From Corallococcus coralloides DSM 2259 (GTDB taxonomy: Bacteria; Myxococcota; Myxococcia; Myxococcales; Myxococcaceae), in assembly GCF_000255295.1 (NCBI RefSeq), contig NC_017030.1, positions 6,102,328 to 6,166,327 of the forward strand: a stretch of DNA of 64,000 nucleotides. Direction: 5' to 3'. The notes beneath the pieces are model-generated. The model saw nothing but the letters and a program-made list of their open reading frames with translations, was not told where the DNA came from and searched no databases. The position numbers were made by a program, and so were the translations under genes. Of the stretch, positions 11,182 through 40,665 are shown in pieces (positions within the stretch are counted from its first letter, which is position 1; every line of letters begins with the position of its first letter).

Positions 11182-11242
11182 GGTGGCACCCCCGGTTGTT
11201 CCACCCCCGCGCCGCCGGAAACGACGGCGCGGCGGGCGGGCT

Positions 11243-11941: not shown

Positions 11942-11944
11942 GGA

Positions 11945-12330: not shown

Positions 12331-12672
12331 CTAGATGTCGTCCGGCAACTTCACGTCCATCTCGATGGAGCCGTTGAACACGGCGCCGTCCTCGATGATG
12401 ACCCGCGGGGCCTTGATGTCGCCCGCGACCTTCGCCGAGGCGTTGATGGCCACTCGCGTGGAGGCGTCGATGTTGCCGCTCGCCTCGCCGTTGATGGTCA
12501 GTTCCTCGGCGCGGATGTCCGCCTGCACCTTGCCGGTGCCTTCGATGGTGAGGTGGTTCTTCAGGGCGATCTGCCCCTCCACACGCCCTTCGATGACCAG
12601 GTCCCCTCCGCCCGTGAGGTTGCCCCTGATGACGATGCCCTTGCCAATGATGCCCGTTTCACCCTGTGCCAT
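12331..12672 (-). CDS. bacN: Bactofilin (BacN-like)
   Basis: A 113-aa bactofilin domain, e.g. ...GDIKAPRVIIEDGAVFNGSIEMD. Confidence 0.8.
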   Translation of the reverse strand: MAQGETGIIGKGIVIRGNLTGGGDLVIEGRVEGQIALKNHLTIEGTGKVQADIRAEELTINGEASGNIDASTRVAINASAKVAGDIKAPRVIIEDGAVFNGSIEMDVKLPDDI

Positions 12673-12725
12673 GAGGTGATCCTCGCCAGCGCCTGCTCCA
12701 GTGGGAGCGGGGCGACCTGATTATG

Positions 12726-22596: not shown

Positions 22597-23489
22597 CAGG
22601 ACTTCCGCTCCACCGAGTAGCGCGCCAGCGCCGCCAGCGGACCGTCCACGCCCTCCAGCGGGCGCACCGCCGCCTCCGCGCGGGCCACCAGCTCGTCGGC
22701 CATGCGGCGGGACTCGTCCAGCCCCACCACCGCCGGGAAGGTGAAGCGTCCGGCCTCCGCGTCCGCGCCCACCGGCTTGCCCATGGCCTCCGCGCTGGAG
22801 GTCACGTCCAGCACGTCGTCGGCGATCTGGAAGGCCAGGCCCACCGCCTCACCGTACGTCACCGCGCTCATGAGCGCCGCCGCGTCGCCGCCAGCCGCCA
22901 GGACGCCCATCCGGCATGCCGCGAGGATGAGCGCGCCCGTCTTCATCCGGTGCAGCCGCAGGAGGTAGTCCAGCGCCGCGGCCCGATCCGCCGCGATGTC
23001 CAGCACCTGTCCGCCCACCATCCCGCTCGCGCCCGCCGCGCGCGCCAGCTCCGCGCACAGGAGGCCGCGCACCGGCTCCGGCCCTCCGGCGAGCACGTGG
23101 AAGGCCTCCGTCAGCAGCCCGTCCCCGGCCAGCAGCGCCAGCGGCTCGCCGTAGACCTTGTGGTTCGTGGGCCGGCCCCGGCGCAGGTCGTCGTTGTCCA
23201 GGCAGGGCAGGTCGTCGTGCACCAGCGAATAGGTGTGCACGTACTCCAGCGAGCACGCCGCATCCAACACCACGGCGCTGTCGGTGCTCGCCTTCGCCAC
23301 CGCGTCCGCGAAGGCCAGGCACAGCACGGGGCGCAGGCGCTTGCCGCCCGCGAGCAGCGAGTAGCGCATGGCCTCCGCCAGCCGGGGCGGCGTGCCCGCG
23401 GGACCCAGGCGGTCCGCGCGTTCGAGCAGGAGCGCCTCCACCCGCGCCTGCTGGGTGCGCATGAAGGGTTCCAGGTTGAAAGCGGCCAT
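22596..23489 (-). CDS. ispA: Farnesyl diphosphate synthase / geranyltranstransferase
   Basis: FARM motif LVHDDLPCLDNDDLRRG and a second Asp-rich motif. The start MAAFNLE is internal to the ORF 22596..23690. Confidence 0.85.
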   Translation of the reverse strand: MAAFNLEPFMRTQQARVEALLLERADRLGPAGTPPRLAEAMRYSLLAGGKRLRPVLCLAFADAVAKASTDSAVVLDAACSLEYVHTYSLVHDDLPCLDNDDLRRGRPTNHKVYGEPLALLAGDGLLTEAFHVLAGGPEPVRGLLCAELARAAGASGMVGGQVLDIAADRAAALDYLLRLHRMKTGALILAACRMGVLAAGGDAAALMSAVTYGEAVGLAFQIADDVLDVTSSAEAMGKPVGADAEAGRFTFPAVVGLDESRRMADELVARAEAAVRPLEGVDGPLAALARYSVERKS

Positions 23490-23494
23490 CGGCG

Positions 23495-23884
23495 TCAGGG
23501 CTCCTTCGCCACGTCGGCGGGGATGAGTTCGCGGATGCGCTTGACGAGCGCGTCCAGCTCCAGCGGCTTCACGAAGTAGTCGGCCGCGCCGACCTCCATG
23601 CCGCGCCGCTTGTCCTCCGGGTCTCCCCGCCCACTGATGAAGATGATGGGGATGTCCCGGAACTGCTTGTTCTGCTTCACGGCCTGGCACAGCTCGAAGC
23701 CGTTGATCCAGGACATGTTCACGTCCAGGAGGATGGCGTGTGGCCGGTGCAGCTCCAGCGACGCGACGAGCCGCAGGCCGTTGGCTGCGGACATGACCTC
23801 GAACCCCTCGGCCCCCAGGGCCTCGGCGAGCAGTTCGCGCGTGTCGCGGTCGTCATCGACAATCGTAATCTTCGGCTTCGACAT
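23495..23884 (-). CDS. Single-domain response regulator (CheY-like receiver)
   Basis: Receiver fold with phospho-acceptor D in ILLDVNMSWINGFEL and a conserved K. It has no output domain. Confidence 0.8.
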   Translation of the reverse strand: MSKPKITIVDDDRDTRELLAEALGAEGFEVMSAANGLRLVASLELHRPHAILLDVNMSWINGFELCQAVKQNKQFRDIPIIFISGRGDPEDKRRGMEVGAADYFVKPLELDALVKRIRELIPADVAKEP

Positions 23885-23914
23885 GCCCGGCCTCCGCCCT
23901 TCCCCAGCTGATGC

Positions 23915-24253
23915 CTAGAACGGGACATCGTCCTCCGGTGGCGGACGCGCCTGCGCGGTCGTCCGGGGGGCAGCCTGGGGAGCGGGCCGGGCCGCCACCG
24001 CCAGCGGCGCCACGACGTCCTGGCCGTCCTCGTCCACCAGCAGCTGCTCGATGCGCTGCTCGGCCTCCGTGAGCAGCTTCTCGCCCCTGCGAACCAGGCG
24101 GATGCCCTCCTCGAACGCCTTGAGCGACTCTTCCAACGACAGGTCGCCGCTTTCCAGCCGCGCCACCGTCTCTTCCAGGCGCGACACCACGTCTCCGTAC
24201 TGCTCCGGAGCGGGCTCCACCTTGGGGTTCTTGTCCGACTTCGCCACGGCCAT
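23915..24253 (-). CDS. xseB: Exodeoxyribonuclease VII small subunit
   Basis: XseB-like helical protein (FEEGIRLVRRGEKLL) next to xseA. Confidence 0.8.
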   Translation of the reverse strand: MAVAKSDKNPKVEPAPEQYGDVVSRLEETVARLESGDLSLEESLKAFEEGIRLVRRGEKLLTEAEQRIEQLLVDEDGQDVVAPLAVAARPAPQAAPRTTAQARPPPEDDVPF

Positions 24254-24294
24254 CCACCTCCCCGAGCGGGGCGCGGAATGTAGAGGGTGGCCCG

Positions 24295-26010
24295 CTAGCA
24301 GTCCACCGGGCCTTTCAGGCTGGTAACGGTCGCTTCGATTTCTTCACACCCACCCAGGGTTTTCGCCCCGTGGGCCGCCAGCTTGATGCCCAGCACGTCC
24401 CCCACCGCCACGTCCGCCGTGGAGCGCACCACGACGCCGTCCCGCTGGCGGAACGTCACCGCGTAGCCGCGGGACATCACCTTCAGGGGGCTCAGGGCGT
24501 CCAGGCGGCCCCCCAACCGTCCGAAGTGCGTCTGCGCGGACGCCAGCATGCCCCGCTGCAGCTCCAGGAGCCGCGCTCTCGCCTGGGCCACCTTCGCCCG
24601 CTCGGCCGCCACCCGCGCCGTGGGGGATTGCCGCTCCAGCCCCAGCCGCGCGTCCGCGAGCGCGCCCCGCCGCCGCGTCACGCCCGCGCGCGCCGCCTCC
24701 GACAGGCGCATGGCCAGTTTCAGCAGGTGCGCCCGCTGCTCCGACAGCCGCGTCTGGGGCCGCGCCCGCTGCAGCCGCTCCTGCAAGGCGCGCAGCGTCT
24801 CGCGGTGCTCGCGCGTGCGGGGGCGCAGCACGCGCATCATCGCCTCCACCTGTTCGGACAGGTGCAGGCGCTGGTGGTTCACCTCGCGGCGTGGATCCGG
24901 CAGGCGCGCGCGAAGCTGGCCCTGGCTCTGGCGCAGCTCCAGCACGCGGCGCTCCATGGCCCGGCGCAGCCGGCCGGACTGCGTGGCCAGCGTCAGCTCC
25001 AGATCGGCGAGCACCGGCGCCAGCCGCTCCGCCGCCGCGCTGGGCGTGGGCGCGCGCAGGTCCGCGACGAAGTCGGAGATGGTGAAGTCGATTTCGTGGC
25101 CGATGGCGGACACCACCGGCACCGGCGAGGCGAAGATGGCGCGCGCCACCCGCTCCTCGTTGAACGTCCAGAGGTCCTCCACGGAGCCTCCGCCGCGCGT
25201 CACGACGATGACGTCCACGTCGGTGCGCGAAAGCCGCTCGATGGCCCGCGCCACGTCCTCCGCGGAGCCTTCCCCTTGCACGCGCGCGTCCGCCAGCAGC
25301 ACGCCCAGCCGGGGGTTGCGCGAGTGCAGCACGCGCAGGAAGTCCTGGAGCGCCGCGCCGGTGCGGCTGGTGACGACGCCGATGCGCCGGGGCAGGAACG
25401 GCACGGGCCGGGGCGGCCGCACGCGCCGGTCGCCGATGAGCCCCTCCGCCGCCAGCCGCTGCTTGAGCTGCTCGAACGCGAGCGCCAGCGCGCCCTCGCC
25501 CACCGGCTCCAGCCGGGACACGATGAGGCTGTAGCGGCCCTGCGGCTCGTACAGGTCCACGCTGCCCTCGGCCACCACCTCCATGCCGTCGCGCAGCGCG
25601 AAGCGGATCCGCGACGCCATGGACGCCCACACCTTCGCGTCGATGGAGGCGTCCGCGTCCTTGAGCGTGAAGTACCAGTGGCCGCGCGCGTTGGCGCCCC
25701 GGAAGCTGGACACCTCGCCGCGCACCATCACGCGCGGGAAGCGCGACTCCACCGTCTGCTTGATCTGCCGGGTGAGCTCGCCCACCGACAACACCGTGCG
25801 CTCCGGGCGCGGCGGCGGGGGGACGGCGGCCGGGGGGGGCGGCGGAGCGATTTCAGCCACCGGCGCGGTAGGCGGGGCCGCAGGCGGCTTGCCTCCGCTG
25901 GCGGCCTTCGCCGGCGCGGGACGCAAGGGGGGTAGCAGCGACGTGCCGAACAGGTCGCCCTGCCCCGGCTCGTCGGCCGGAGGCGGCTCCATCCCCTTGC
26001 GCTTCTTCAT
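24295..26010 (-). CDS. xseA: Exodeoxyribonuclease VII large subunit
   Basis: OB-fold N-terminus (GHWYFTLKDADASI) and catalytic core (TRGGGSVEDLWTFNEE). The start MKKRKGM is internal to the ORF 24295..26541. The protein has a Pro-rich N-terminal extension. Confidence 0.85.
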   Translation of the reverse strand: MKKRKGMEPPPADEPGQGDLFGTSLLPPLRPAPAKAASGGKPPAAPPTAPVAEIAPPPPPAAVPPPPRPERTVLSVGELTRQIKQTVESRFPRVMVRGEVSSFRGANARGHWYFTLKDADASIDAKVWASMASRIRFALRDGMEVVAEGSVDLYEPQGRYSLIVSRLEPVGEGALALAFEQLKQRLAAEGLIGDRRVRPPRPVPFLPRRIGVVTSRTGAALQDFLRVLHSRNPRLGVLLADARVQGEGSAEDVARAIERLSRTDVDVIVVTRGGGSVEDLWTFNEERVARAIFASPVPVVSAIGHEIDFTISDFVADLRAPTPSAAAERLAPVLADLELTLATQSGRLRRAMERRVLELRQSQGQLRARLPDPRREVNHQRLHLSEQVEAMMRVLRPRTREHRETLRALQERLQRARPQTRLSEQRAHLLKLAMRLSEAARAGVTRRRGALADARLGLERQSPTARVAAERAKVAQARARLLELQRGMLASAQTHFGRLGGRLDALSPLKVMSRGYAVTFRQRDGVVVRSTADVAVGDVLGIKLAAHGAKTLGGCEEIEATVTSLKGPVDC

Positions 26011-27755
26011 CGCGACAGCTTCTCGACCCAGCCCTGGGCCTTGCCGTGCAGCTCGTCGTCCGGCGGCGTCATCGCGACGACGTCGCGGAACTTGGGCAGC
26101 GCGTCCTCCGGGCTGGAGTCCTTGATGGAGTAGGCCTGCATGTACAGGTCCTTCGCCTTGCCCTTGAGGTCGTTGACGATGTTGGCGGCGCCCGTGTGGC
26201 TGGGGTCGGCCTGGAGCGCGCGGCGGGCGAACTCCATGGCGCGCGACCACTGGCCGGCGGCCTTCGCGCCCGCGGCGCTCTTGTAATAGATGTTGCCCGC
26301 GCGGGTGCCCGCGTTGCGCGCCATCTTGCTCGTGCGCCCGTCGGTGATGTCCTTGTCCAGCGCGAGCAGGCGGGTGAGGCCCTTGGCGTCCAGGTCCTCC
26401 AGCTTCTTGTAGAGGTTGCCGAACTCCGTCATCTGCCCCATCAGCTGCTTGCACTGGGGCGTCTTCGCCGAGCACGCATTGAGGATGGCCACCGCGCCGG
26501 TGATGTCCGCGTCGCGGAAGCGGTCCACCGCGGGCTCCCACGGCTTGGGCGCCGCGGCCACGCGCACGGGGTCCGGACGCGTCAGGTCCGCGATGACGCG
26601 CGCGGCGTCGTCATTGACGAGCTTGCCGTCGCGGTGCTCCGGGAAGGTCGCGAGCACGTCGTCGGTGATGGCCTTGGCCTTCTGCACGTTCTCCAGCTGG
26701 CGGGTGTCCAGCAGCCCCTTGGCCTCCTTCGTGCGCTTGTCGGCGGCGTCCGTCAGGTTCTTGCGCGCCGTCTTCAGCTGCTCGTAGAGCTGGGTGTCGC
26801 TGCTCACCTTTTCGATGGACGCCTTCGCTGCGGCCAGCTCCCCCTTGTCCAGCGCCGCCTGGGCCATGCCCAGGTGCTTCTGGTTGGGAATCTCCCGCTC
26901 CGCGGCCTTCAGGTAGTCCTCCACGCCGGGGTAGGTTGGCGCCTGCGTGTGGAGCTCCTCCAGCTTCGCCTTGGCCTGCTCCCACTGGCCCTCGCGCACC
27001 AGGTTCTTGGCCTCCTGGAAGAGGCCGCCCAGCTGCTCGCGGTACTTGCGCTGCTCCGCCTCGATGCGGCCCTGCTCCTCCTGCTGCTGCCGCATGCGCG
27101 AGCGCGCGACGCCCAGGCCCGCGAAGAGCACCACCAGCACGGCGACGCCCGCGAGCTTCATCCGCATGCGCTTGCGCTGCATCTCCGGCGTGAGCTCCGC
27201 GGCGGCCGCGGCCCGCGACGTCTGCGGGCGCGCGCGGCCCTCCCGGGGGGGACGCGATGGCACGGCCGTGGGACCGCGACCCGCCGCCGTGGACGGACGG
27301 GGCCGGGGGCTGGAGGGGGCCTGCACCTTGGCGGTGCTGTTGGCGGTGTCCTCGTAGCGCAGCTCCGAGTCGCCCAGCGTGATGACGTCGCCGTTGGCGA
27401 GGAGCGTCTCCTCGGCGATGGGCTCGCCGTTGACGATGGTTCCGTTGCCGGAGCCCATGTCACTGACCATCCAGCCGGCGGACTCCTTGCGCAGCGTCAC
27501 GTGCTTGCGGGAGACGGACGTGTCCTGGATGCAGATGGGGTTGTCGGTGGCGCGGCCGACCGTGTACTCGAGCTCGGAGAGCGCGAACTCCTCGCCCTCC
27601 ATGGGGCCGGCGACGACGACGAGCTTCGCGGGGCGGGCCGCGGCGGCACCGGCGGTCGACCGGCGGACCGGCGCGCGCGAACCCGTCCCGGAGGAGGGCG
27701 TACCGGATGTAGGCCGGCGGCGGGCGGGGGGAGGTGCGTTCGACATGGAGGTCAC
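26007..27755 (-). CDS. FHA domain protein with a transmembrane segment and a C-terminal helical (TPR-like) domain
   Basis: FHA motif ...YTVGRATDNPICIQDTSVSRKHVTL...NGTIVNG, then a TM helix (GVAVLVVLFAGLGVA). Its stop overlaps the xseA start (ATGA). Confidence 0.75.
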   Translation of the reverse strand: MTSMSNAPPPARRRPTSGTPSSGTGSRAPVRRSTAGAAAARPAKLVVVAGPMEGEEFALSELEYTVGRATDNPICIQDTSVSRKHVTLRKESAGWMVSDMGSGNGTIVNGEPIAEETLLANGDVITLGDSELRYEDTANSTAKVQAPSSPRPRPSTAAGRGPTAVPSRPPREGRARPQTSRAAAAAELTPEMQRKRMRMKLAGVAVLVVLFAGLGVARSRMRQQQEEQGRIEAEQRKYREQLGGLFQEAKNLVREGQWEQAKAKLEELHTQAPTYPGVEDYLKAAEREIPNQKHLGMAQAALDKGELAAAKASIEKVSSDTQLYEQLKTARKNLTDAADKRTKEAKGLLDTRQLENVQKAKAITDDVLATFPEHRDGKLVNDDAARVIADLTRPDPVRVAAAPKPWEPAVDRFRDADITGAVAILNACSAKTPQCKQLMGQMTEFGNLYKKLEDLDAKGLTRLLALDKDITDGRTSKMARNAGTRAGNIYYKSAAGAKAAGQWSRAMEFARRALQADPSHTGAANIVNDLKGKAKDLYMQAYSIKDSSPEDALPKFRDVVAMTPPDDELHGKAQGWVEKLSR

Positions 27756-27782
27756 CGCGTCCTGCTGAGGGGGGCACGGGCC

Positions 27783-30700
27783 CTAAAGCTCGTGCTCATA
27801 GGCTTTTTCCTGCGCGAGATTGTGGCAGCGATGCTCGGCCGTAGGGAAGCGTCTCCGTACGTCTTCCAGGGTCGCGACCGCATCCCGTCGGCTGCGGAAC
27901 TGAACCGCCCGCTGGAACTGCATCATCAGCTGGCTGCAGCGGTGGTCCAGCTCCGTTGAAATCTGGGCGATCCGCTCCCGGACGTCCTCGTAGAGCTCCG
28001 GCTTTTCGTCCAGCGCTTCCAGGGTGATCCACGCGGAGCGGTAGTCCTTCCACGCCTTGAACAGGTTCTCCGCGCCCACGTCCTTGAGCTCGTAGAAGCG
28101 GGCCCCCGACTTCGCGTACTCCCGGGCGTCGAGGACCAGCTGCTCCGGCGACGCCTCCGGCACCGGGATGATCTCCAGCCGCAGGTTCCAGATGCGCCAC
28201 GGGTCACGGCCGGGCGGGTTGAGGGCGTTGTCGAAGAGGAGCTGGTTGTTGGCGTTGCGCCGCAGGAGGCTGGGCGGGAGGATCTGCTCCAGCTCACGCT
28301 CGGCTGTCTGGGCAGTGTCCGGGGGCACCCAGCCCAGGGACACGCCGTTGAGGGACAGGTTGACCTCGTCCCGGGCGATGTTGCTGGCCTGGTAGTGCAG
28401 CACCGCCACCGCGCGCGTGGGGGACACGAAGCGGAAGTCGAAGAGCTTGTCGTCGGCGTGGACCCAGCGCACGCCCTCGCCCAGACCGAAGGAGTCCGTC
28501 ACCGGCTCCATGCCCAGCTTGAAGGGTTCGCGGCCCGGGAGCCGGATGGCCGTGGGGGACACGAGCGCCACGAGCAGCGTCACCACGGCCAGCACGGCCA
28601 CGGCCGCCAGCGACGCGAAGCCGATGCGCTTGGGCAGCGACTGGCGCTGCCAGAAGAGGACGAGCTGCCCCTGGAGCGACCGGGCCAGTTGACGCCGCCT
28701 GCGGGCCTTGTCGGCGGCGGACGAGGGTTCGACCTTCGCGACGACCGTCACCGGGCCGTTGGGCACGGGCTGGACGAAGGAGTCCTCCCGGTCGGCCGGT
28801 ACGGACTGGGTGGCTTCGCCCTCCCCGTTCGGAGCGGGCGCGCGGGCCAGCAGAGGGGTCTCGCCCGGAAGCGGGCCGGGGTTCAGGGTCGGGGCAGGCG
28901 CGGCCCGCTCCCTGCCGACGAACGTCACCGGCTCCGGCGGAGGCGCCACGGCCGGTGCGGCGGTGCCGGGCGCGACCTGGCCCGTGAAGGTCCCGGAGGC
29001 CCGGGTCTCCTCGGGGGCCAAGGAGAGGTCATCGTCCTGGCCGACGAAGGTCGAGGGCTCGCTGGAGTCGATCGCGGCGGCGGGAGCGCTCACGACGCGC
29101 ACCGGAGGGGCCACGAGCGGGCTGACCGGGGTGATGGGCCGGAGGTCGAGGACGGTCCGCTCCTCGGGCTCCTCCATCGCCGGCGGAAGCAGCGCGGGCG
29201 AGGCGTCCTGAGGAGGCGGCGCCTTTTCCAAGGGCGGCGCTACCGGGGTCGCCGGAATCGCCATCAGCGTGCGCTCCTCGGGCTCGTCCAGCTCCGGCAG
29301 GGGCAGCACGGGCGGCGGCGCGGCGGACACGGGCGAGTCCACCGAGGCAATCGCCATCAGCGTGCGCTCTTCGGGCTCGTCCAGCTCCGGCGGGGGCAGC
29401 ACGGGCGGCGGCCCGGCGGGCACTGGCGAATCCACCGAGGCAATCGCCATCAGCGTGTGCTCTTCAGGCTCGTCCAGCTCCGGGAGGGGCAGCACGGGAG
29501 GCGGCGCGGCGGCGGGCACGGGCGAGTCCACCGAGGCAATCGCCATCAGCGTGCGCTCCTCGGGTTCGTCCGGCACCACCGAGGCCAGGTCCACGGGAGG
29601 CGGTGCGACGGAAGGCCGTGCTGGAGGCGGCGGAGCCATGAGCCCCGGCGGCGTCATCAACGGCAGGCCCGGCGAGGAAGCCGCGGCACCCCGAGCCGCC
29701 GGAGCAGCGGACGCGCGCGCGGCGCCAAGCCCCAGCGAGGGACGGTTCAGCGCGGGCGCACCGACCCCAGGCAGGTTCGCGACAGCGTTCTGCTTCGCGG
29801 GAACTGGAGCCGCGACCTTCTCCGGAGCAGGAGTCGCCGCGTGGGCAGCCCCCATCGAAGCCGGGGTTCCGGCCGCGGGAAGCTCGAGCGCGGTGATGTG
29901 CGCGGGCTCCGGCGCGGACGGCCGGCCCGGTCCCGAGGCACCGACGGCCGCCAGCCCCGGCCCGGAGGCCCGGACGGAGGCGGAAGCTCCCGAAGCCGTG
30001 TTCGCCGTCGAGGCACTCAGCGCCGGGGGGCCACCAGGAGCCTTGGCCGGAGCACCCACGCCCGGAACGGCAGGTCCCAACACAGGAGGCGCGGCGGGAA
30101 CCTTGCCCGAAGCAGCCGATGCGGAGGCCCCCAGCACAGGCGGCCCCACGGGAGGCTTGGGCGGAGCCGCAGCCCCCGGCGCGGAGGCACCCAGCACAGG
30201 AGGCGCGGCGGGAACCTTGCCCGAAGCAGCCGATGCGGAGGCCCCCAGCACAGGCGGCCCCGCGGGAGGCCTGGGCGGAGTCGCAGCCCCCGGCGCGGAC
30301 GCTCCCAGCACAGGAGGCTTTGGCGAAGTCACCGCCCCCGGCGCTGAGGCGCCCAGCACAGGAGGCCCGGCGGGAGGCTTGGGCGGGGCCGCCGTACCTG
30401 GCGCGGAAGCGCCGAGCACAGGCACCGGCGGAGTCCGGGCCGGAGCGGCCGCGACCGGCGCTGGAGCACTGACCGCCGGCAGATCCGGAGCGGAGGGGCG
30501 CTTCGGTGTGGCGGCCGGCATCGGCATCGCCGGGGTCGCCCCACCCTTCGCGGCGGGCATGGCCATTCCCGGGCGCGGTGGAGACGCCGGCCGGGCCATG
30601 GCCGGCATCGACTGCTGGTAGCTCGTGGGCGCCGCTTCGATCTCCGCGAGCGACGCCTGCTCCAGGCCCTGCGGCGACACCTTCGCGTTGGGCGGCGCGA

Positions 30701-30968
30701 GCGCCCGCCGGATGGGCCGGGTGACGTCGTCGTCATCCTCCGGCGGCATCCACACGAAGGTGAACTCCACCGGCCCCACGGTGATGCGGTCGCCGTCGCG
30801 CAGCTGCTTCTCGCCGCTCAGCGGCTGGCCGTTCAGCTGCGTGCCGTTCGCGCTGCCGACGTCCTCCGCGAAGTAGCGCCCATCCCTCGCCGTGATGCGG
30901 GCATGACGCCGGGAGACACCGTGGTCATGCAGCACCAGGTCGTTCTCCGAGGTCCGGCCGATCTTCAC
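27783..30968 (-). CDS. Large FHA domain protein with Pro/Ala-rich tandem-repeat region, a transmembrane helix and a C-terminal domain
   Basis: FHA core ...KIGRTSENDLVLHDHGVSRRHARI...NGTQLNGQPL. The called GTG start truncates the FHA domain; in-frame upstream codons encode its first beta-strands (see findings). Confidence 0.75.
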   Translation of the reverse strand: MKIGRTSENDLVLHDHGVSRRHARITARDGRYFAEDVGSANGTQLNGQPLSGEKQLRDGDRITVGPVEFTFVWMPPEDDDDVTRPIRRALAPPNAKVSPQGLEQASLAEIEAAPTSYQQSMPAMARPASPPRPGMAMPAAKGGATPAMPMPAATPKRPSAPDLPAVSAPAPVAAAPARTPPVPVLGASAPGTAAPPKPPAGPPVLGASAPGAVTSPKPPVLGASAPGAATPPRPPAGPPVLGASASAASGKVPAAPPVLGASAPGAAAPPKPPVGPPVLGASASAASGKVPAAPPVLGPAVPGVGAPAKAPGGPPALSASTANTASGASASVRASGPGLAAVGASGPGRPSAPEPAHITALELPAAGTPASMGAAHAATPAPEKVAAPVPAKQNAVANLPGVGAPALNRPSLGLGAARASAAPAARGAAASSPGLPLMTPPGLMAPPPPARPSVAPPPVDLASVVPDEPEERTLMAIASVDSPVPAAAPPPVLPLPELDEPEEHTLMAIASVDSPVPAGPPPVLPPPELDEPEERTLMAIASVDSPVSAAPPPVLPLPELDEPEERTLMAIPATPVAPPLEKAPPPQDASPALLPPAMEEPEERTVLDLRPITPVSPLVAPPVRVVSAPAAAIDSSEPSTFVGQDDDLSLAPEETRASGTFTGQVAPGTAAPAVAPPPEPVTFVGRERAAPAPTLNPGPLPGETPLLARAPAPNGEGEATQSVPADREDSFVQPVPNGPVTVVAKVEPSSAADKARRRRQLARSLQGQLVLFWQRQSLPKRIGFASLAAVAVLAVVTLLVALVSPTAIRLPGREPFKLGMEPVTDSFGLGEGVRWVHADDKLFDFRFVSPTRAVAVLHYQASNIARDEVNLSLNGVSLGWVPPDTAQTAERELEQILPPSLLRRNANNQLLFDNALNPPGRDPWRIWNLRLEIIPVPEASPEQLVLDAREYAKSGARFYELKDVGAENLFKAWKDYRSAWITLEALDEKPELYEDVRERIAQISTELDHRCSQLMMQFQRAVQFRSRRDAVATLEDVRRRFPTAEHRCHNLAQEKAYEHEL
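29256..29600 (-). repeat. In-frame tandem repeat, 93-96 nt unit, about 3.7 copies
   Basis: Unit aatcgccatcagcgtgcgctc...ccaccgaggc recurs at 29256, 29349, 29442 and 29538. It encodes the 31-32-aa peptide DEPEERTLMAIASVDSPVPAAPPPVLPLPEL. Confidence 0.85.
30020..30445 (-). repeat. In-frame tandem repeat, 57/114-nt period
   Basis: Repeats of aggcgcggcgggaaccttgcccgaagcagccgatgcggaggcccccagcacaggcggcccc, with copy starts at 30087 and 30201. They encode repeats of the form PPVLGASAPGAATPPKPPAG. Confidence 0.8.
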
Positions 30969-31041
30969 TTCGGCCTGCTCGAAGGCGAGCTCCCGTCCGA
31001 CCTGGAGCCCCTGGGTGATGGTGAGCAGGATGGGCAGAGGA

Positions 31042-31932
31042 CTAGCCCCCGACGTTGCCGAACATGAACTGGAACACGATGGGCCCGAAGAGCACCATGA
31101 ACACCGTCGGGAAGATGCAGGCGATGAGCGGGAAGAGCATCTTCACCGGCGCCTCGCCCGCCAGCTTCTCCGCGCGCTGCGTGCGGTCGATGCGCATCTG
31201 CGTGGACTGGATGCGCAGCACCTTGCCCAGGCTCGTACCCATCTTGTCCGCCTGGATCAGCGCCGTGACGAACGTCGTCAGCGGCGGCAGGTCCACGCGC
31301 ACGATCATGCTCTTGAGTCCCTCTTCACGCGTCTTGCCCATCTTGAGCTGCTTGAGCACCAGCTGCAGCTCTTCACGCAGCGGACCCTGGCGGCCCTTCT
31401 CCACCACCTTCGCCAGCGCGCCCGTGAAGTCCATGCCCGCTTCCACCGACAGCGTCAGCAGGTCCAGGTTGTACGGAAGCGCGCGGCTGATGGCCAGGTG
31501 ACGGCGCTTCACCTGGTCGTTCAACCAGATGAGCGGATAGAACAGGCCAATCAGCATCACCACCAGCGACCAGGCCAGGTTCGCCCCGATGCCGTTGGCG
31601 ACGAACAGGCCCACCAGCAGGCCCAGGAAGGCGCTCACTTCCTGCAGCGCCATGATGTCCTCGGGCTTGTACTGGGACGGCTCGCCCGCCTTGATCAACT
31701 TGCGGCGCGTCTTGGACTCGTAGCCCGGCCACATGAAGCGCCGGTTCATCGCGCCCAGCTTGCGGATGGCGACGGAGCCCGCGCCCTTCATGCCGCCCGC
31801 GGACTCGTCGCGGACTTCCGTGAGGAAGCGCTCCAGGATGTTGGTGTACAGGCCGATGCCCAGGAACGCCACCGCGCCCGCGGTCAGCAGTGCCGAGCCG
31901 CCCATCAGCAGAAATGTCAGGACTTCCTGCAC
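31042..31932 (-). CDS. Type II secretion system F family protein (TadC-like Flp pilus assembly membrane protein)
   Basis: T2SSF/GspF fold with three TM regions. It lies in a Tad/Flp-like gene neighbourhood. Confidence 0.8.
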   Translation of the reverse strand: MQEVLTFLLMGGSALLTAGAVAFLGIGLYTNILERFLTEVRDESAGGMKGAGSVAIRKLGAMNRRFMWPGYESKTRRKLIKAGEPSQYKPEDIMALQEVSAFLGLLVGLFVANGIGANLAWSLVVMLIGLFYPLIWLNDQVKRRHLAISRALPYNLDLLTLSVEAGMDFTGALAKVVEKGRQGPLREELQLVLKQLKMGKTREEGLKSMIVRVDLPPLTTFVTALIQADKMGTSLGKVLRIQSTQMRIDRTQRAEKLAGEAPVKMLFPLIACIFPTVFMVLFGPIVFQFMFGNVGG

Positions 31933-31945
31933 GGTGCGCCTCGTT

Positions 31946-32791
31946 TCAGATGTCGATGTTGACGATGCGCCGGATGATGAGGATGCCCATGATCTCCATG
32001 ATGGCGATCAGGGTCACCAGGATGTAGCCGAAGATGTGGTTCATCATCGGCTCCATCAGGTCCGGACGCATGTAGTTGAGCACCATGCCCAGCACCGCCG
32101 GCATGGCCGCGACGATCCACCCCTGAAGCTTGCCCTGGGAGGTCAGCGCGTCGATCTTGCCTTCCAGACGGAAGCGCTCGCGGATCACCGTGGAGATGGT
32201 CTCGAACATCTCCGCCATGTTGCCGCCCAGCTGGCGCGCGATGTTGGTGGACACCACCACCAACTCCAGGTCGTCGCTGCCCACGCGCTTGCCCATGTTG
32301 ACGAGCGCCTCTTCCAGCGGCACGCCCAGCTTCACTTCCTTCACGAAGAGGCCGAACTCCTGCGACAGGGGCGGCAGCGCTTCGCGCGCCACGTGCTCGA
32401 TGGCCTGCGGGAACGTGAGGCCCGCCTTGAACGCGTTGGCCATGGCCTGCAGCGCGTCCACCAGCTGCACGTTGAACTTCTTGATGCGGCGCTTGCGGTA
32501 GTGCTTCACGAGCAGCATCGGCAGGAAGAAGCCGAAGATGGTCGCGAGCACCGCCAGGATGGGGTTGAAGATGATGTAGCTGAGGATGCCCAGAAGGCAC
32601 ATGCAGGCGATGTTGAGGATCAACATCTGCCGCGCGTCGATGAAGAGGAACATGTCGCTCAAGTCGTTCATCGACTTGGCGACGTACCGCTCCTGGTACT
32701 GCTCATACGCCTTCGACAGGACGCTGAAGATCACCAGGCTGAAGAAGAACACCGAGCCGGTGACGAGAAGGAGGACGATACCTGCGAGCAT
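31946..32791 (-). CDS. Type II secretion system F family protein (TadB-like)
   Basis: A second T2SSF paralog adjacent to the TadC-like gene. Confidence 0.8.
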   Translation of the reverse strand: MLAGIVLLLVTGSVFFFSLVIFSVLSKAYEQYQERYVAKSMNDLSDMFLFIDARQMLILNIACMCLLGILSYIIFNPILAVLATIFGFFLPMLLVKHYRKRRIKKFNVQLVDALQAMANAFKAGLTFPQAIEHVAREALPPLSQEFGLFVKEVKLGVPLEEALVNMGKRVGSDDLELVVVSTNIARQLGGNMAEMFETISTVIRERFRLEGKIDALTSQGKLQGWIVAAMPAVLGMVLNYMRPDLMEPMMNHIFGYILVTLIAIMEIMGILIIRRIVNIDI

Positions 32792-32871
32792 GGGCGCGAA
32801 TCCCCGGGGGATGAGGGAGGGGTCGGCAGGGCCGCTTCAGCCTTGAAGCAAAGCGGCCCCGCGCGCGACGA

Positions 32872-33690
32872 CTACGGAGCTCCGGCCGAGGCCTTCTCGC
32901 CGCTGCCACTGCCCTTGATGATCTGGATGATCTCCCGGCGCTTCTGCTCGAGCACACGGGTGCGCTCACCGGAGAGCAGCGTGCTGATGGTCGCGCGGCC
33001 ACGCTCCTCGATGAGGTCCACGTCGTCCTCGTTGCGCAGCGACAGGGTCAGCTGCCCCAGTTCTGCCGCCAGCACCAGGATCTCCGCCTCTTCCGGCAGC
33101 ACCATCAGCGAGACGTTCGAATACTCGCGCTGGTTCTCCGGGATGAGGTTGATGTTCGTGGTACCGGTGATCTTGCCCGTGGCGACCACGATGATGTTCT
33201 GCAGCAGCGTCACCGCGACGCTCTCGTCCGTCTGCGGATCGCGGAACGTGCCGATGATGTCCACGTGATCGTTGGGGCGGATCCACCCGCCCACCGCCGT
33301 GGTCTGCTTCGCCTCGATGGTGACGGCGCGCGCCTTCTTCTGCACCTTCGTGGACAGGCGCTCGGCGGCTTTCGTCGTCTCGAACTGGCTCCAGAGGATG
33401 GGGTCGCCGGCCTGCAGCGCCACCAGCACCTTCTGGTTCACGATGTAGTTGGCGGAGTCCGGCTTCACCACCGACGAGGTGACGAACTGCTCCGGCACGG
33501 AGCGCTGGGAGATCATCTCGTACGTGATGACCGACCCCTCGGGCATGTCCTGGCCCGCCACCACCACGGGCACCAGGTTCCACCCGCGGCGCACATCGGA
33601 TTCCTTCTTCTTGATGGCCGAGTAGGCCACGATGCCCGCGAGCAAACCGAGCACCAGTGCGACGACGAGCGGGGTCTTACCCTTCAACAT
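32872..33690 (-). CDS. Flp pilus assembly protein CpaB/RcpC family
   Basis: N-terminal TM anchor, SAF-like domain and RcpC-like C-terminal region. Confidence 0.75.
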   Translation of the reverse strand: MLKGKTPLVVALVLGLLAGIVAYSAIKKKESDVRRGWNLVPVVVAGQDMPEGSVITYEMISQRSVPEQFVTSSVVKPDSANYIVNQKVLVALQAGDPILWSQFETTKAAERLSTKVQKKARAVTIEAKQTTAVGGWIRPNDHVDIIGTFRDPQTDESVAVTLLQNIIVVATGKITGTTNINLIPENQREYSNVSLMVLPEEAEILVLAAELGQLTLSLRNEDDVDLIEERGRATISTLLSGERTRVLEQKRREIIQIIKGSGSGEKASAGAP

Positions 33691-33780
33691 GGTTCAAAGT
33701 CCTCCAGAACGGTGGGGCGCCGTCGTGGCGGCAGGACTGCTTTGGACGAGGGGGCAATGCCAGGGCGCGAACGGGTCAAG

Positions 33781-33810
33781 ATGTTAGCCATGCCCCAGAG
33801 CAGGTGTCAA
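33781..33810 (-). promoter_or_regulatory. Putative sigma-70 promoter upstream of cpaB
   Basis: Minus strand reads TTGACA, 18 nt, TAACAT, about 85 nt upstream of the cpaB start. Confidence 0.3.
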
Positions 33811-33923
33811 AACCACCTCTCGTGACAAAGCGGAATCCCGGGACCTCCGGAGCTCACGGAGCCCGCCCGCCCAGGGGGGAGGACGGCTCGACGCAGCGTG
33901 CTGATCCGCGGCCTTCCGTCCCT

Positions 33924-34226
33924 TCAGGGGAACGGCAGGTTCAGCACGAAGTAAAACGAGTCGTAATAGATCTGGTACGCCTCGAGGAACAGGTCGATGA
34001 CGTTGGTCTGCCGGTCGTCCGTCCAGCGGATCCGCACCGTGGCGCCAATGACGAGCCCGACGATCAACACCCAGTTGATCATCGAGTACTCCACCATGGC
34101 CTGGCCACGGCGGGCCCGGCGCGGGGAGCGCGGCGGCGACTTCCGGGAGCTGTTCACGGGGGGAGCGTGCACGTCCGACGTCATGGCCCCATTATCCAGG
34201 ACCCGGGCCCCGGACGCATCGGTCAT
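33924..34226 (-). CDS. Flp/Fap-type pilin (class III signal peptide)
   Basis: Contains the Flp prepilin processing motif G/XXXXEY (RRG-QAMVEY), followed by a hydrophobic helix WVLIVGLVIGATV and a short C-terminus. An alternative start is M15 at 34184. Confidence 0.5.
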   Translation of the reverse strand: MTDASGARVLDNGAMTSDVHAPPVNSSRKSPPRSPRRARRGQAMVEYSMINWVLIVGLVIGATVRIRWTDDRQTNVIDLFLEAYQIYYDSFYFVLNLPFP

Positions 34227-34244
34227 GTGGACTGCCGCCCTCCC

Positions 34245-35693
34245 CTACTGCGCGGGCTGGGAGGGGGCGGCCCTGGCCGGAGCGGACGCCGGAGCCGTGG
34301 GGGGCGAGGCCTGACGCAGGCGGCGCTGGGCCAGCTGCGCCGCGCTGGAGCCGGGGGCCTCGGAGATGATCTGCCCGCAGACGGCGGCGGCCTCCTGGGT
34401 CCGGCCCTGGACGGACTCCGACTCGCAGAGCCGTGAGAGCAGGGCCAGCCGCTCGCTGCCGCTGGCTCCGGCCGCGAGCGCGGCGCGCAGCAGCTGCGCC
34501 TCCCGGGCGCGGTCACCCTGGTTCGCTGCGGCCTGGGCCTGGGCGGACAGGTCGCGCGCCGTCATCGCCTCCTTGGACGCGGACTTCTCCAGGGGAGAAG
34601 GCTTCGCGGCCTCGGCGCGGGCGGACTCCTGCTTGGGCTTTGCGGTCGAAGGCTCCGGAGGCCGCGCACCACCGATGGAGCCGATGGAGCCCATGGCGGA
34701 GGGGGCCATGGGCGCGGCCTGGACCACCGGCGCGGAGGCCACGGCGGGAGGTGGCGGAGGCGCGCCCGCGGCCACGCTCTGCTCGTCATCCAAGCCGAGC
34801 CCACGGCCATAGGCCGCCTCGCCCAGCCGGAGGGAGTCGCCCTTCGCCTTGTCACTGAGCTTGCCCGGGGAACGCCGCGGCGCGGGCTCATCCTTCGCCA
34901 CGTAGCCGTCGTCGGCCCGCACCTCCTTCGGAGGCGCCTCCATCGCGGGCGCGCCGGCCGTCGCCTGCTCGAGCGCGGCGAAGTCTTCCTCCTCGTCCCG
35001 GACGGCCTTGGACATCTTCTTCTTGGGAGCCTCTGCTTCCGCGCGGCGCTCCAGCAGCGCGCCACCGCTGCCCGCGTTCATCCAGTCCGACGGACGGGCC
35101 GCGGCGGCGCCCTTGCGCTGTGGCTTGGCCTCCACCCGATTCTTGCTGAACTCCCTCTCGCGCGGCGCGGAGGCCAGTGCGTCCGAGGCGCCTTCGGGCA
35201 CGTCCACTTCGAGGGTCGCGCTCGAAGGCGCGGGGGCCAGGGCGCTCGGGGCGCGCTTGTCCTGCGTTGGCGCTTCCTGCTTCGCCGCCGCCATCGTCGG
35301 GCTGGGGGCGGCCCGCTGCGACAGGTTCGGCGACAGGTCGAGGTTCTCGCTCACCGTCAACGTCAGGAGGCCGAAGGTGCTCACCGTGGCCAGGCCCACC
35401 GCGGGCAGCAGCCAGCGGCGCCAGCGTGAGGGCTTCGGCTCGGGGCCCGCGGAGGCTCGGCGCGCGGACTGCTGCGCGTACGCGAGCAGCGACTCCAGGC
35501 CCGCGTCCGGCGCGGGCTCCGACGACAGCTGCGCCATGGTGGTGCGCACGCCGCGGATGTCCGCCAGCGCCTTCGTGCAGCGCGCGCAACCCTGGACATG
35601 CTGCTCCAGCGCCTGGGCCTCCGACGCGGGCAGCTCGCCGTAGGCGAAGTCGAGGAGCCGGTCCTCGTGCGCGTGGGCATTCTGGGCATTCAT
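34245..35693 (-). CDS. Anti-sigma factor (zinc-binding ZAS type) with TM helix and extended periplasmic/C-terminal region
   Basis: ZAS motif HVQGCARC (H-x3-C-x2-C) and a TM helix WLLPAVGLATVSTFGLLTL. It overlaps the ECF sigma gene by 4 nt. Confidence 0.7.
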   Translation of the reverse strand: MNAQNAHAHEDRLLDFAYGELPASEAQALEQHVQGCARCTKALADIRGVRTTMAQLSSEPAPDAGLESLLAYAQQSARRASAGPEPKPSRWRRWLLPAVGLATVSTFGLLTLTVSENLDLSPNLSQRAAPSPTMAAAKQEAPTQDKRAPSALAPAPSSATLEVDVPEGASDALASAPREREFSKNRVEAKPQRKGAAAARPSDWMNAGSGGALLERRAEAEAPKKKMSKAVRDEEEDFAALEQATAGAPAMEAPPKEVRADDGYVAKDEPAPRRSPGKLSDKAKGDSLRLGEAAYGRGLGLDDEQSVAAGAPPPPPAVASAPVVQAAPMAPSAMGSIGSIGGARPPEPSTAKPKQESARAEAAKPSPLEKSASKEAMTARDLSAQAQAAANQGDRAREAQLLRAALAAGASGSERLALLSRLCESESVQGRTQEAAAVCGQIISEAPGSSAAQLAQRRLRQASPPTAPASAPARAAPSQPAQ

Positions 35694-36370
35694 CCCGCCA
35701 CCGTCCTTCCATCCTCCGACAGGTCGCCGTCCACGCCCAGCTCACCCAGGCGGCGGCGCAGGCCCTCCAACGCGTAGCGCATGCGGCTCTTCACCGTGTT
35801 CTCGGACACGCCCGTCACCTCGGCGATCTCCTTGAACGGGATGCCGCTGTACTCGCGCAGCACGAACACCTCGCGCTGCTCCTCCGGCAGGGCCGACAGG
35901 GCCCGCTCCAGGAGGGGCCGGAGACGGGCGTTGTGCGCGCCGCGCTCCGGGCTGGCCCCGGCATCCGGCAGCCCCTCGCCCAGCGGACGTCCCTCGTCGC
36001 CGTCGGCCCCCGCCGCGGGGGCTTCCAGGGACGTCGCCTGGCGGTAGCTCTCTTTGCGCGTGCTGTCCACGCAGAGGTTCCTCGCGATGGTGTACAGCCA
36101 GGTCGTGAACCGGGCCTTGGGCTCGTATTCCCGGGCGCTGCGGACCACCTTGAGCCAGGTCTCCTGCAGCACGTCCTCCGCCCGCGCCCGGTGGCCCACG
36201 AAGCGCAGGATGAAGTTGAACACCGGCGCGCGGTGCTTGCGCACCAACGCTTCGAACGCACGCGCGTTTCCCGCCTGGAAGGCGAGCATCAGCTGCTCGT
36301 CTGAGGTTTCGGGTGCCAAACTTCCCCCAGTGCCCATGAAGCCACGGGTGCCATCCCCTTCACCGCCCAC
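35690..36370 (-). CDS. RNA polymerase ECF-type sigma-70 factor
   Basis: Sigma-70 region 2 (VLQETWLKVVRSAREYEP...FTTWLYTIARN) and region 4 HTH (REVFVLREYSGIPFKEIAEVTGVSENTVKSRM). An alternative start is at 36337. Confidence 0.8.
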   Translation of the reverse strand: MGGEGDGTRGFMGTGGSLAPETSDEQLMLAFQAGNARAFEALVRKHRAPVFNFILRFVGHRARAEDVLQETWLKVVRSAREYEPKARFTTWLYTIARNLCVDSTRKESYRQATSLEAPAAGADGDEGRPLGEGLPDAGASPERGAHNARLRPLLERALSALPEEQREVFVLREYSGIPFKEIAEVTGVSENTVKSRMRYALEGLRRRLGELGVDGDLSEDGRTVAG

Positions 36371-36401
36371 GGCCTGTAACGGACAGCCGTGTGCGAAAGG
36401 T

Positions 36402-36815
36402 CTATTCCGGCCGTGGCCGCCAGTAAGTGGCGAGAATGACAGGGACCGCCACCCCTGTCACCAGAAGTGCCTGCGCCAGCAGCACCGCCGGTAGCGGGCG
36501 CTGCACATGCACGTACAGCGAGCGGCCGAGCCCCACTCCCAACAGGATGCCCGTCAGCGTGCGCACCGCGTTGGAACCCGAAGCGGGCCGGAAGCGTCCC
36601 ACCGCCCAGTCCACGAGCGCGGGCAGCGTGAGCGCCAGCACCACCGGCACGTCCCACTCCCACCGCAGCGGCGCCTTCAGCGCGAACAGTCCGAGGAACA
36701 CGGCGGCGAGCACCGGATACGTGCCCAGGCACCGCGCGCACACGCGCACGCCCGCGAGCACGTACGTGCGGTTGTACTCATCCGGGTGATGATGGCTGAG
36801 CCAGAACACCGGCAC
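36402..36815 (-). CDS. DUF2085 family membrane protein
   Basis: Motif [28 protein letters not shown] matches the DUF2085 pattern (CHR.P.RS...CARC.G.Y). A GTG start inside the ORF 36402..37103 overlaps the oppF tail by about 38 bp. Confidence 0.5.
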
Positions 36816-37833
36816 CTCCTCCGGACGTGGAAACAGCGGGCCCGTCCTGCACGTTGCGCGAATCCCCTTCGGCCAGGAAGCACGCCGCGGCGTGGCCTCC
36901 ACCCAGGGGATACAGCGGGGGTGACTCGCGGCGGCAGCGCTCCATCGCATGCGGGCAGCGCGGATGGAACGCGCAGCCGGTCGGCGGCGACAGGGGCGAA
37001 GGCGGCTCTCCCGGCAGCAGGAGCCGCGCGCGGGGACGCTCCGGATCCGGCACCGGCACCGCGGACAGCAGCGCCTGCGTGTACGGATGGCGAGGCCCTG
37101 CATACAGCGACCGGGACGGCGCCACCTCCACGATGCGGCCCAGGTACATCACCGCCACGCGCGTGGACACGTACTCCACGATCTTCAGGTCGTGCGCGAT
37201 GAAGACGTACGTGAGCCCGCGCTCGCGCTGCAGGTCCACCAGCAGGTTGACGATCTGCGCCTGGATGGAGACGTCCAGCGCGCTGATGGGCTCGTCCGCC
37301 ACCACCAGATCCGGGCGCAACGCGATGGCACGTGCAATGCCGATGCGTTGACGCTGGCCGCCGGAGAACTCGTGCGGGTAGCGCTGGCGCGCCTCGCGGG
37401 GCAGCCCCATGGCGTCGAGCAGCGCCAGCACCTCGTCCTCGCGCGCCTTCCCCTTCGCGAGCCCGTGGATGGCGAAGGGCTCCGCGAGGATGTCCCCCAC
37501 CGTCATGCGCGGGTTGAGCGACGCGTAGGGGTCCTGGAAGACGAGCTGCATCTGGCGGCGCAGCGGCCGCAACTCGCGCTGCGACAGGCCGGTCAGCTCG
37601 CGCCCGGCCACGCGGATGGAGCCGGAGGTCGGGTCGATGAGGCGCAGCACCGCGCGCCCCAACGTGCTCTTGCCGCAGCCGCTCTCCCCCACCAGGCCCA
37701 GCGTCTCTCCGCGGGCGACTTCGAAGGACACGCCGTCCACCGCGCGCACCGTGCCGCGCGTGCGGCCCAAGAGGCCGCCCTTCACCGGGAAGTGCACCTT
37801 CAGGTCGCGCACCTGGACCAGCGGTTCGCTCAT
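36778..37833 (-). CDS. oppF: Oligopeptide/dipeptide ABC transporter ATP-binding protein (OppF/DppF-like)
   Basis: Walker [10 protein letters not shown], signature FSGGQRQR, and the C-terminal oligopeptide-ABC Cys motif [17 protein letters not shown]. The start MSEPLVQ is internal to the ORF 36778..38313. Confidence 0.8.
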
Positions 37834-39847: not shown

Positions 39848-39856
39848 GGCCGGGGG

Positions 39857-40606: not shown

Positions 40607-40665
40607 GTCGTGCGCGCCATAGTACCCGGTTTGCGCCGGGACGCTGCCTTTCGACGCCTGGAAGC

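Follow-up and report, generated by a model that had tools for sequence, protein, structure and literature searches.

A compact kil-type gene cluster in Corallococcus coralloides DSM 2259, with a proposed start codon and periplasmic fold for its large FHA protein

The subject of this report is a set of eight adjacent minus-strand genes (26007-36370) in a 64-kb stretch of the Corallococcus coralloides DSM 2259 genome (contig NC_017030.1), referred to throughout as the window. They are related to genes of the Kil contact-killing apparatus of Myxococcus xanthus, from which the gene names used here are taken. The window is ~70% G+C, so most of its open reading frames (ORFs) are spurious, and genes were picked out by third-position G+C (GC3). 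All eight reading frames are intact and of coding-type composition (GC3 0.85-0.96), and Pfam or NCBIfam profiles support domain calls for seven of the eight products, the exception being a 100-aa ORF at 33924-34226. An initial annotation, made from the sequence, had described eight consecutive minus-strand genes here as a Tad/Flp-like pilus module with two FHA proteins and its own sigma/anti-sigma pair, and had named T2SSF, RcpC/CpaB, FHA, and Sigma70_r2/r4 as domains to be looked for; the gene set stood up, and each of these domains was found among the seven matched products. For comparison, 80 related loci with 10-kb flanks were collected, and the window proteins were mapped onto them by tblastn.

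The first gene in the direction of transcription encodes an extracytoplasmic function (ECF) sigma factor of 209 aa (35690-36319, minus strand), with matches to Sigma70_r2 (E 7e-19), r4_2 (E 5e-17), and NCBIfam NF009166 (268 bits, cut-off 206). Its open frame reaches a GTG at 36370. Of the start candidates, the TTG at 36319 alone is conserved throughout the aligned loci, where it follows a GGGGGA-type ribosome-binding site, and in some loci a stop closes the frame shortly before it; the gene most likely starts at this TTG, and not at the GTG. It overlaps by 4 nt the start of a co-oriented anti-sigma gene (34245-35693, minus strand; zf-HC2 E 8e-6, NF052375 E 2e-9), the ortholog of MXAN_4661, whose product is membrane-spanning and of ZAS type: a cytoplasmic H32VQGCARC motif (HxxxCxxC, residues 32-39), a transmembrane (TM) helix at 96-114, and a ~370-aa periplasmic part rich in Ala, Pro, and Glu. 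A sigma factor with regions 2 and 4 only, next to a gene for an HxxxCxxC protein, has the features of a group 4 (ECF) sigma factor with a cognate ZAS anti-sigma, as both had been called at the outset.

The next gene, kilK (33924-34226, minus strand), is separated from the anti-sigma stop upstream by 18 nt and from kilB downstream by 233 nt. Its 100-aa product (86 aa, if the second ATG is the start) carries RRG/QAMVEY followed by a hydrophobic segment, and cleavage at the G/QAMVEY motif would leave a mature part of 59 aa. It has no NCBIfam match and no Pfam match at E <= 0.01, including to Flp_Fap (PF04964). It is 75-78% identical over ~62-68 aa to a 75-aa product whose gene takes the MXAN_4655 position in Myxococcus loci, and the sequences RGQAM[VL]EYS and, at the C-terminus, VIDLFLEAYQ.YYDS.YFVLNLPFP are conserved in nearly all of ~70 loci. 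In M. xanthus, KilK has been reclassified as a minor pilin of Flp type, an adapter on which Tip1, Tip2, and Tip4 depend (Nat Commun 2025, PMC12075869), while the major pilin, KilP (MXAN_5121), is encoded elsewhere (PMC12075869). The Flp-type pilin first proposed for this position is therefore present as regards its G/XXXXEY motif, but it has no Flp_Fap match and is KilK, an adapter rather than a major pilin.

Downstream of it, kilB (32872-33690, minus strand) encodes a periplasmic protein for pilus assembly, CpaB/RcpC-like and anchored to the membrane at its N-terminus (RcpC E 6e-23, SAF E 3e-7; NCBIfam TIGR03177 CpaB, 189 bits, cut-off 71). Two inner-membrane platform proteins follow, TadB/CpaG-like KilG (31946-32791, minus strand; T2SSF E 3e-17) at the position of MXAN_4651 and TadC/CpaH-like KilH (31042-31932, minus strand; T2SSF E 1e-18) at that of MXAN_4650. 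These matches agree with the CpaB, TadB-like, and TadC-like calls of the initial annotation. The last two genes encode FHA proteins, discussed below.

This set very probably represents, in its orthologous Corallococcus form, kil gene cluster II of M. xanthus (MXAN_4648-4661), a known system rather than a new one. The gene list of MXAN_4648-4661 is given by Seef et al. (eLife 2021, Supplementary file 1; PMC8460266), and the M. xanthus locus of the comparison set (L031) agrees with it in content; it is anchored to the published cluster by its TadG-like gene, which is 97% identical to MXAN_4659 of DK1622. The order xseA / FHA-TPR / FHA / kilH / kilG / kilB ... kilK ... zf-HC2 anti-sigma / ECF is common to the Myxococcus loci. 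The flanks are collinear family-wide: a MshEN gene, two ABC ATPase genes, a DUF2085 gene, and the ECF and anti-sigma genes on one side, and kilB-kilG-kilH-FHA genes-xseA on the other. Identity to the Myxococcus proteins ranges from ~40% (anti-sigma) to 95% (KilG), with KilB at 92%, KilH at 83%, KilK at ~77%, and the FHA-TPR protein at ~61%. Among Corallococcus species KilB and KilG are 96-100% identical; the KilB of the window has an exact match in GCA_003611625.1 and 96-99% identity to KilB of named Corallococcus species. Orthologs, order, and flanks are thus those of M. xanthus cluster II: KilB-KilG-KilH, two FHA genes directly downstream of kilH, KilK, and a zinc-finger protein are all found, and the only feature lacking is a set of Tip4 minor pilins inside the cluster. 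The kilB, kilG, and kilH genes have been demonstrated to be essential for contact killing in M. xanthus (PMC8460266), and the Kil system and its presence in Corallococcus are already published.

As in M. xanthus, the ATPase, secretin, and peptidase genes lie at a separate locus. Among all GC3-supported ORFs identified in the 64 kb there were no Pfam matches to T2SSE, Secretin, Peptidase_A24, TadE, Tad, or CpaE-like families, in agreement with the earlier remark that ATPase, secretin, and prepilin peptidase are absent from the window and that the machinery must be completed from elsewhere. Best hits to a canonical Tad locus, with ATPase and secretin adjacent, had been named as the outcome that would speak against the proposed identity; no such T2SSE or Secretin match was seen in the window. 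In the published table, kilA/C/F/D of C. coralloides have gene indices 4689-4692 and kilB/G/H 4609-4611, and the tables for other complete Corallococcus genomes give similar spacing. Since they list kilA/C/F/D ~80-90 genes away, the rest of the Kil machine does exist in the genus, outside the window; the corresponding distance between clusters I and II is ~1500 genes in M. xanthus.

The Corallococcus cluster is compact by comparison. In Myxococcus, ~8 kb between the anti-sigma gene and kilB hold kilM4, kilN4, kilL4, MXAN_4657, MXAN_4656, kilK, MXAN_4654, and MXAN_4653; in the window and in 13 Corallococcus loci, kilK is the sole survivor of this block. No tblastn match to kilL4, kilM4, and kilN4 (Tip4, MXAN_4658-4660) or to MXAN_4653, 4654, 4656, and 4657 was found in the window or in any of the 13, all of which retain the large FHA gene. 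The gene-order match to MXAN_4648-4661, proposed at the outset, holds for the shared genes, but seven of the 14 M. xanthus genes are missing here. Tip4 minor pilins are present in Myxococcus, Pyxidicoccus, Hyalangium, and Archangium (by tblastn); the full block is found in Myxococcus, Pyxidicoccus, Citreicoccus, Hyalangium, and some deeper lineages, with the pilin block inverted in Archangium and Cystobacter. A separate group of distant metagenome-assembled genomes is likewise compact, but lacks the large FHA gene as well. Given this distribution, the Corallococcus form would most simply be explained by a genus-level deletion flanking kilK on both sides. A published description of the compact architecture could not be found.

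Retention of kilK makes sense because published tables for C. coralloides list Tip1 and a Tip2 gene (KilM), both tips being KilK-dependent in M. xanthus; KilP, Tip1, and a Tip2 gene (KilM) are likewise listed elsewhere in complete Corallococcus genomes. The compact cluster II can be regarded as a natural trimmed minimum, with Tip4 and four accessory genes as the dispensable set, and kilK, kilB, kilG, kilH, the FHA-TPR gene, and the ECF and anti-sigma genes always kept across loci. It makes Corallococcus a good natural test of the need for Tip4 in killing independent of a type III secretion system (T3SS).

Relocation of Tip4 within Corallococcus was considered and rejected: among the best 120 homologs of M. 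xanthus KilN4 there are no Corallococcus sensu stricto names. Of the matches that were looked up, two come from metagenome contigs in which anti-sigma, kilM4, and kilN4 stand in their usual arrangement, and one from a 3.2-kb metagenome contig with kilM4-kilN4-kilL4. There are also two orphan KilN4-like TadG genes, 70-74% identical to MXAN_4659, in metagenome contigs (L086, 7001-9091; L087, 7001-9088). Neither has a kilL or kilM gene beside it, their neighbours being genes for a geosmin-type terpene synthase and for cNMP-binding proteins. The L086 protein clusters with Myxococcus hansupus-like genomes, two of them deposited as Comamonas, and the cluster of the L087 protein carries no names.

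Two conserved promoter-like motifs divide the cluster, neither of which could be found described in the literature. The first, a candidate ECF-type promoter TAGACC-N17-CGTT (36378-36404, minus strand), is a single match in the window and includes the TAG stop of the upstream DUF2085 gene. The pattern TAGA.C...CGTT (TAGAYC-N17-CGTT) is conserved in at least 80% of 26 loci, with the TAG stop invariant. No checked locus covering this region was found to have it more than once, and where present it immediately precedes the sigma gene; no second copy was found upstream of kilK, kilB, or Tip4 in the 20 loci searched for one. CGTT, as a candidate -10 element, is similar to the GTT-type -10 elements of SigR/SigH-type sigma factors, and the motif may be an autoregulated promoter. 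About 75 nt upstream of the predicted ECF transcript start, within the 3' end of the DUF2085 gene, is a palindrome, TGACAG-N12-CTGTCA (36437-36460), unique in the window (0.02 expected by chance) and conserved at the DNA level in the 26 aligned loci, using T-ending codons in a genome where GC3 is >0.9. The DNA upstream of the sigma gene is conserved beyond the needs of the DUF2085 protein, and the palindrome is a candidate regulator-binding site. Overlapping sigma and anti-sigma genes and an HxxxCxxC anti-sigma are shared with the SigR-RsrA and SigH-RshA pairs; unlike soluble RsrA, the anti-sigma here is membrane-spanning with a large periplasmic part, which suggests an envelope-side rather than a cytoplasmic redox signal.

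The second motif, TTGACA-N18-TAACAT (33781-33810, minus strand), is a candidate sigma-70-type promoter for the kilB operon, with 10 of 12 consensus positions and a predicted 5' untranslated region (UTR) of ~93 nt. It is the only consensus sigma-70 match within 25800-40200, is found in 73 loci, and is conserved in at least 80% of the 26 aligned loci, regardless of the upstream gene. From kilB through the FHA-TPR gene, spacing is tight. The ribosome-binding site of kilB is closely preceded, in the 5' UTR (33691-33780, minus strand), by a small GC-rich hairpin, GCCG...CGGC; its counterpart in Archangium is CGCCC...GGGCG, a hint of compensatory change. A perfect 9-bp stem-loop without a T-run, GGGCCGCTT-N14-AAGCGGCCC, lies between kilB and kilG (~32800-32860, minus strand) and could be an mRNA processing or stability element. 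An Rfam scan of 23000-41000 gave nothing above threshold.

The initial annotation had assigned the ECF pair to the pilus module as its own regulator. Conserved linkage and probable co-transcription with kilK bear this out, but control of assembly does not follow, the machinery genes being behind the conserved sigma-70-type promoter. It may even be that the pair is merely a conserved neighbour, with its regulon elsewhere and no Kil role, which we consider possible if somewhat unlikely. Housekeeping neighbours (xseA, DUF2085, and the two ABC ATPase genes) are equally conserved, xseA even overlapping the last kil gene; the ECF-like motif was seen, in the loci checked, in front of the sigma gene and nowhere else; published tables of kil-like clusters in Bdellovibrio and Bradymonas do not list ECF or FHA homologs; and no paper on MXAN_4661 or MXAN_4662 was found. 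Yet wherever the fetched region includes the pair, it is upstream of minor-pilin genes: kilM4-kilN4-kilL4 directly after it in Myxococcus and the metagenome contigs, and kilK after 18 nt, leaving no room for a promoter, in Corallococcus. The linkage has also outlived both the two deletions giving the compact form and the inversion of the pilin block in Archangium, all of which speaks against the pair being a mere neighbour.

The large FHA protein, the ortholog of MXAN_4649 (27783-31037, minus strand; 1084 aa; FHA E 8e-20, with a Yop-YscD_cpl match), is bitopic: a cytoplasmic FHA domain, a ~700-aa Pro/Ala-rich repeat linker, a TM helix at 808-826, and a periplasmic beta-sandwich and helical bundle. 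Its start is a CTG (31035-31037) that follows the kilH stop by 4 nt and is preceded by a G run. The first ATG, GTG, or TTG comes only after the FHA and YscD matches have begun. A conserved PILLTITQG is preceded in Corallococcus and many further genera by CTG; Myxococcus has GTG at this codon, and distant loci have ATG or TTG. A GTG at 30968 was considered as the start and rejected: the FHA and YscD matches begin at least 17 residues upstream of it, and the codon homologous to that at 31037 is the start in other genera. Gene callers in public assemblies choose the GTG 23 codons downstream of the CTG, truncating the FHA domain. The FHA domains of both proteins and the TM helix of the second had been correctly called beforehand, but the length of 1061 aa assigned to the larger becomes 1084 aa from the CTG.

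The linker is encoded in part by tandem DNA repeats of 93 bp and 114/60 bp. The protein is 940-1124 aa long in Corallococcus and 483-650 aa in most other genera; compared with that of M. xanthus it is about twice as long (1084 vs. 484 aa), with CTG in place of the Myxococcus GTG start. A motif EPEE[RH]T is present in five copies in the protein of the window, and the form EPEE[RH]TLMAI, with three to five linker copies, is found only in Corallococcus. Directly after the FHA domain, 37 of 56 orthologs have an acidic DDDxTRPI; FHA domains commonly prefer pT-x-x-I/L (pT, phospho-threonine), which this sequence fits. The C-terminal domain is ~61-66% identical to that of Myxococcus. An AlphaFold2 model of the periplasmic domain, from 35 sequences, is confident (pLDDT 91.6, pTM 0.85) and predicts an eight-stranded beta-sandwich followed by a five-helix bundle. 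By Foldseek, the sandwich has weak similarity to CBM6/35/36, collagenase collagen-binding domains, Cry toxin domain III, and BcsB, and generic TPR proteins are also among the matches.

The second FHA protein (26007-27755, minus strand; FHA E 3e-18; TPR_14, TPR_2, and TPR_19 E ~1e-5 to 1e-6), the ortholog of MXAN_4648, is also bitopic: residues 199-217 form a TM helix between a cytoplasmic FHA domain and ~365 aa of helical, TPR-like periplasmic sequence; it is 60-63% identical to its Myxococcus counterpart. Phospho-threonine control via these FHA proteins is a reasonable inference, and one also drawn by the authors of the Kil work (PMC8460266). A literature search for MXAN_4648, 4649, 4661, and 4662 gave nothing beyond two Kil papers and a review, and no published description of the periplasmic fold or CTG start of the MXAN_4649-type protein could be found; a corrected gene model and a predicted fold are now available for this uncharacterised protein.

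An FHA domain, then a TM helix, then a periplasmic domain is also the layout of the T3SS protein SctD (YscD/PrgH), and the two FHA-TM proteins could conceivably form a T3SS-like SctD/PrgH inner-membrane ring, in a Tad/T3SS basal-body hybrid. Both FHA domains match Yop-YscD_cpl (E 1e-19 and 3e-18) and, weakly, TIGR02500 (SctD), and MXAN_4649 is labelled PrgH-like in the eLife 2021 list (PMC8460266). The TIGR02500 scores are 29 and 18 bits, however, far under the cut-off of 86, and the confident periplasmic model has a beta-sandwich and TPR-like bundle instead of ring-building motifs. The top fold matches listed for it include carbohydrate-binding-module-like or collagen-binding-like sandwiches and generic TPR proteins, but no SctD or PrgH chain, so the published label seems to reflect the FHA domain only. 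The ~700-aa disordered cytoplasmic linker is a further difference from SctD, and a ring of this kind is improbable.

A compact cluster with seven M. xanthus genes missing, and with a large FHA gene that has no canonical start codon, might also be read as a decaying, non-functional remnant left after loss of Tip4 and the accessory genes. This is very improbable given eight intact frames, KilB and KilG that are 96-100% identical within Corallococcus and 92-95% to Myxococcus, and the same compact form maintained in 13 Corallococcus loci with the kilB promoter conserved. The CTG start recurs in many genera, others having GTG, ATG, or TTG there, and Tip4 deletion by itself leaves predation on agar plates unimpaired in M. 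xanthus (PMC12075869).

That this is a canonical adhesive Tad/Flp pilus locus, rather than a Kil predation module, can be dismissed: its Flp-like pilin with a G/XXXXEY prepilin motif, CpaB/RcpC, and TadB- and TadC-like (T2SSF) proteins are of the same families as in the tad/cpa loci of Aggregatibacter and Caulobacter, for which the role is adhesion and not, as for kil in its model organism, predation, but TadA/CpaF, secretin, TadV, TadZ/CpaE, TadD, and TadE/F/G are all absent from the 64 kb, membrane-anchored FHA proteins (a Kil signature, not in canonical tad loci; PMC8460266) and an adjacent ECF/anti-sigma pair are present, and orthology to kil cluster II extends gene by gene and into the flanks.

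As a Kil cluster II, the window would supply the platform (KilG, KilH), CpaB-like KilB, the adapter KilK, two membrane-anchored FHA proteins, and an ECF/anti-sigma pair. The partners encoded elsewhere would be cluster I (peptidase KilA, secretin KilC, FHA-ATPase KilF, and KilD), KilP as the major pilin, and the Tip clusters of minor pilins, and the joint product, by orthology to M. xanthus, a short Tad-like pilus assembled at the place where prey is touched and killing the prey. There would be two transcription units: ECF, anti-sigma, and kilK from the conserved ECF-like promoter; and the five genes from kilB to the FHA-TPR gene, continuing into xseA, from the conserved near-consensus sigma-70 promoter. 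The machinery would then be made constitutively and its assembly controlled post-translationally, with FHA/phospho-threonine docking as a candidate switch, while the ECF pair would drive itself and the downstream priming pilins, tuning the supply of adapter and tip pilins. Kil clusters are published to form within minutes of contact, with which assembly-level control of constitutive machinery agrees. For predatory myxobacteria, Kil is the central weapon in killing by contact, and the evidence placing machinery genes behind a constitutive-type promoter, and adapter and tip pilins behind an ECF/anti-sigma unit, offers a lead towards how contact with prey sets off its assembly.

More speculatively, the membrane-spanning anti-sigma and ECF factor could form an envelope- or prey-contact-sensing branch of Kil, with an autoregulated operon carrying the priming pilins, and the FHA linker could be a docking scaffold; the proposal is a tentative one, and on balance doubtful. 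If it held, the priming pilins in the ECF operon would be Tip4 and KilK in most genera and KilK alone in Corallococcus. With Tip4 lost across the genus, Corallococcus would be without the only tip able, in M. xanthus, to kill in the absence of the needleless T3SS, and its killing would depend wholly on tips linked to the T3SS. The linker of the large FHA protein, doubled in length and carrying repeats of an acidic Thr motif, would serve other Kil FHA proteins as a multivalent phospho-threonine docking scaffold specific to Corallococcus.

Several points weigh against this overall picture of a two-unit Kil module lacking Tip4. The killing activity of the Corallococcus module is deduced from orthology, and the putative transcription units are drawn from spacing and conserved motifs; the start of xseA overlaps the last kil gene, and tight packing here also joins unrelated genes. 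The -35 element of the putative ECF promoter is atypical, TAGACC rather than GGAAC-like. With no match to Pfam Flp_Fap, KilK fits by its cleavage motif, size, and hydrophobic N-terminal segment after the cleavage site. The evidence for genome-wide loss of Tip4 in Corallococcus is indirect, coming from named database hits and 13 loci of at most ~20 kb each.

Of the neighbouring genes, xseA (exonuclease VII large subunit) has an ATG that overlaps the stop of the last kil gene as ATGA (26007-26012), and the transcript of the kil operon probably extends into the housekeeping genes xseA and xseB. On the other side, a DUF2085 membrane protein gene (36402-36800) lies directly upstream of the sigma gene and is preceded by two Dpp/Opp-type ABC ATPase genes with oligo_HPY (36778-37800 and 37830-38840), with no permease or binding protein nearby; both the DUF2085 and ABC ATPase genes are kept upstream of the sigma gene family-wide. 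Beyond these are genes for two tandem standalone MshEN-domain proteins of 336 and 249 aa (38837-39847 and 39857-40606, minus strand; Pfam E 4e-13 and 5e-15, NF053729 E 4e-16), the first overlapping the start of an ABC ATPase gene by 4 nt. They have the type of motif that binds cyclic di-GMP in MshE-like ATPases, but no ATPase domain, and a MshEN gene is syntenic upstream of the ECF/kil region in loci whose fetched stretch reaches that far.

Two assemblies, named "Comamonas sp. KCTC 72670" and "Comamonas sp. JC664" (L033, P0010 cluster), have Myxococcus-type kil loci, with KilB 92% identical, and look like mislabelled myxobacterial genomes. Elsewhere in the window, and unrelated to the kil module, two bactofilin genes (11243-11944 and 12331-12720, minus strand) stand next to a gene for a ParB_N-domain protein (9865-11256); they resemble the bactofilin/ParB-like module for chromosome organisation known in M. 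xanthus.

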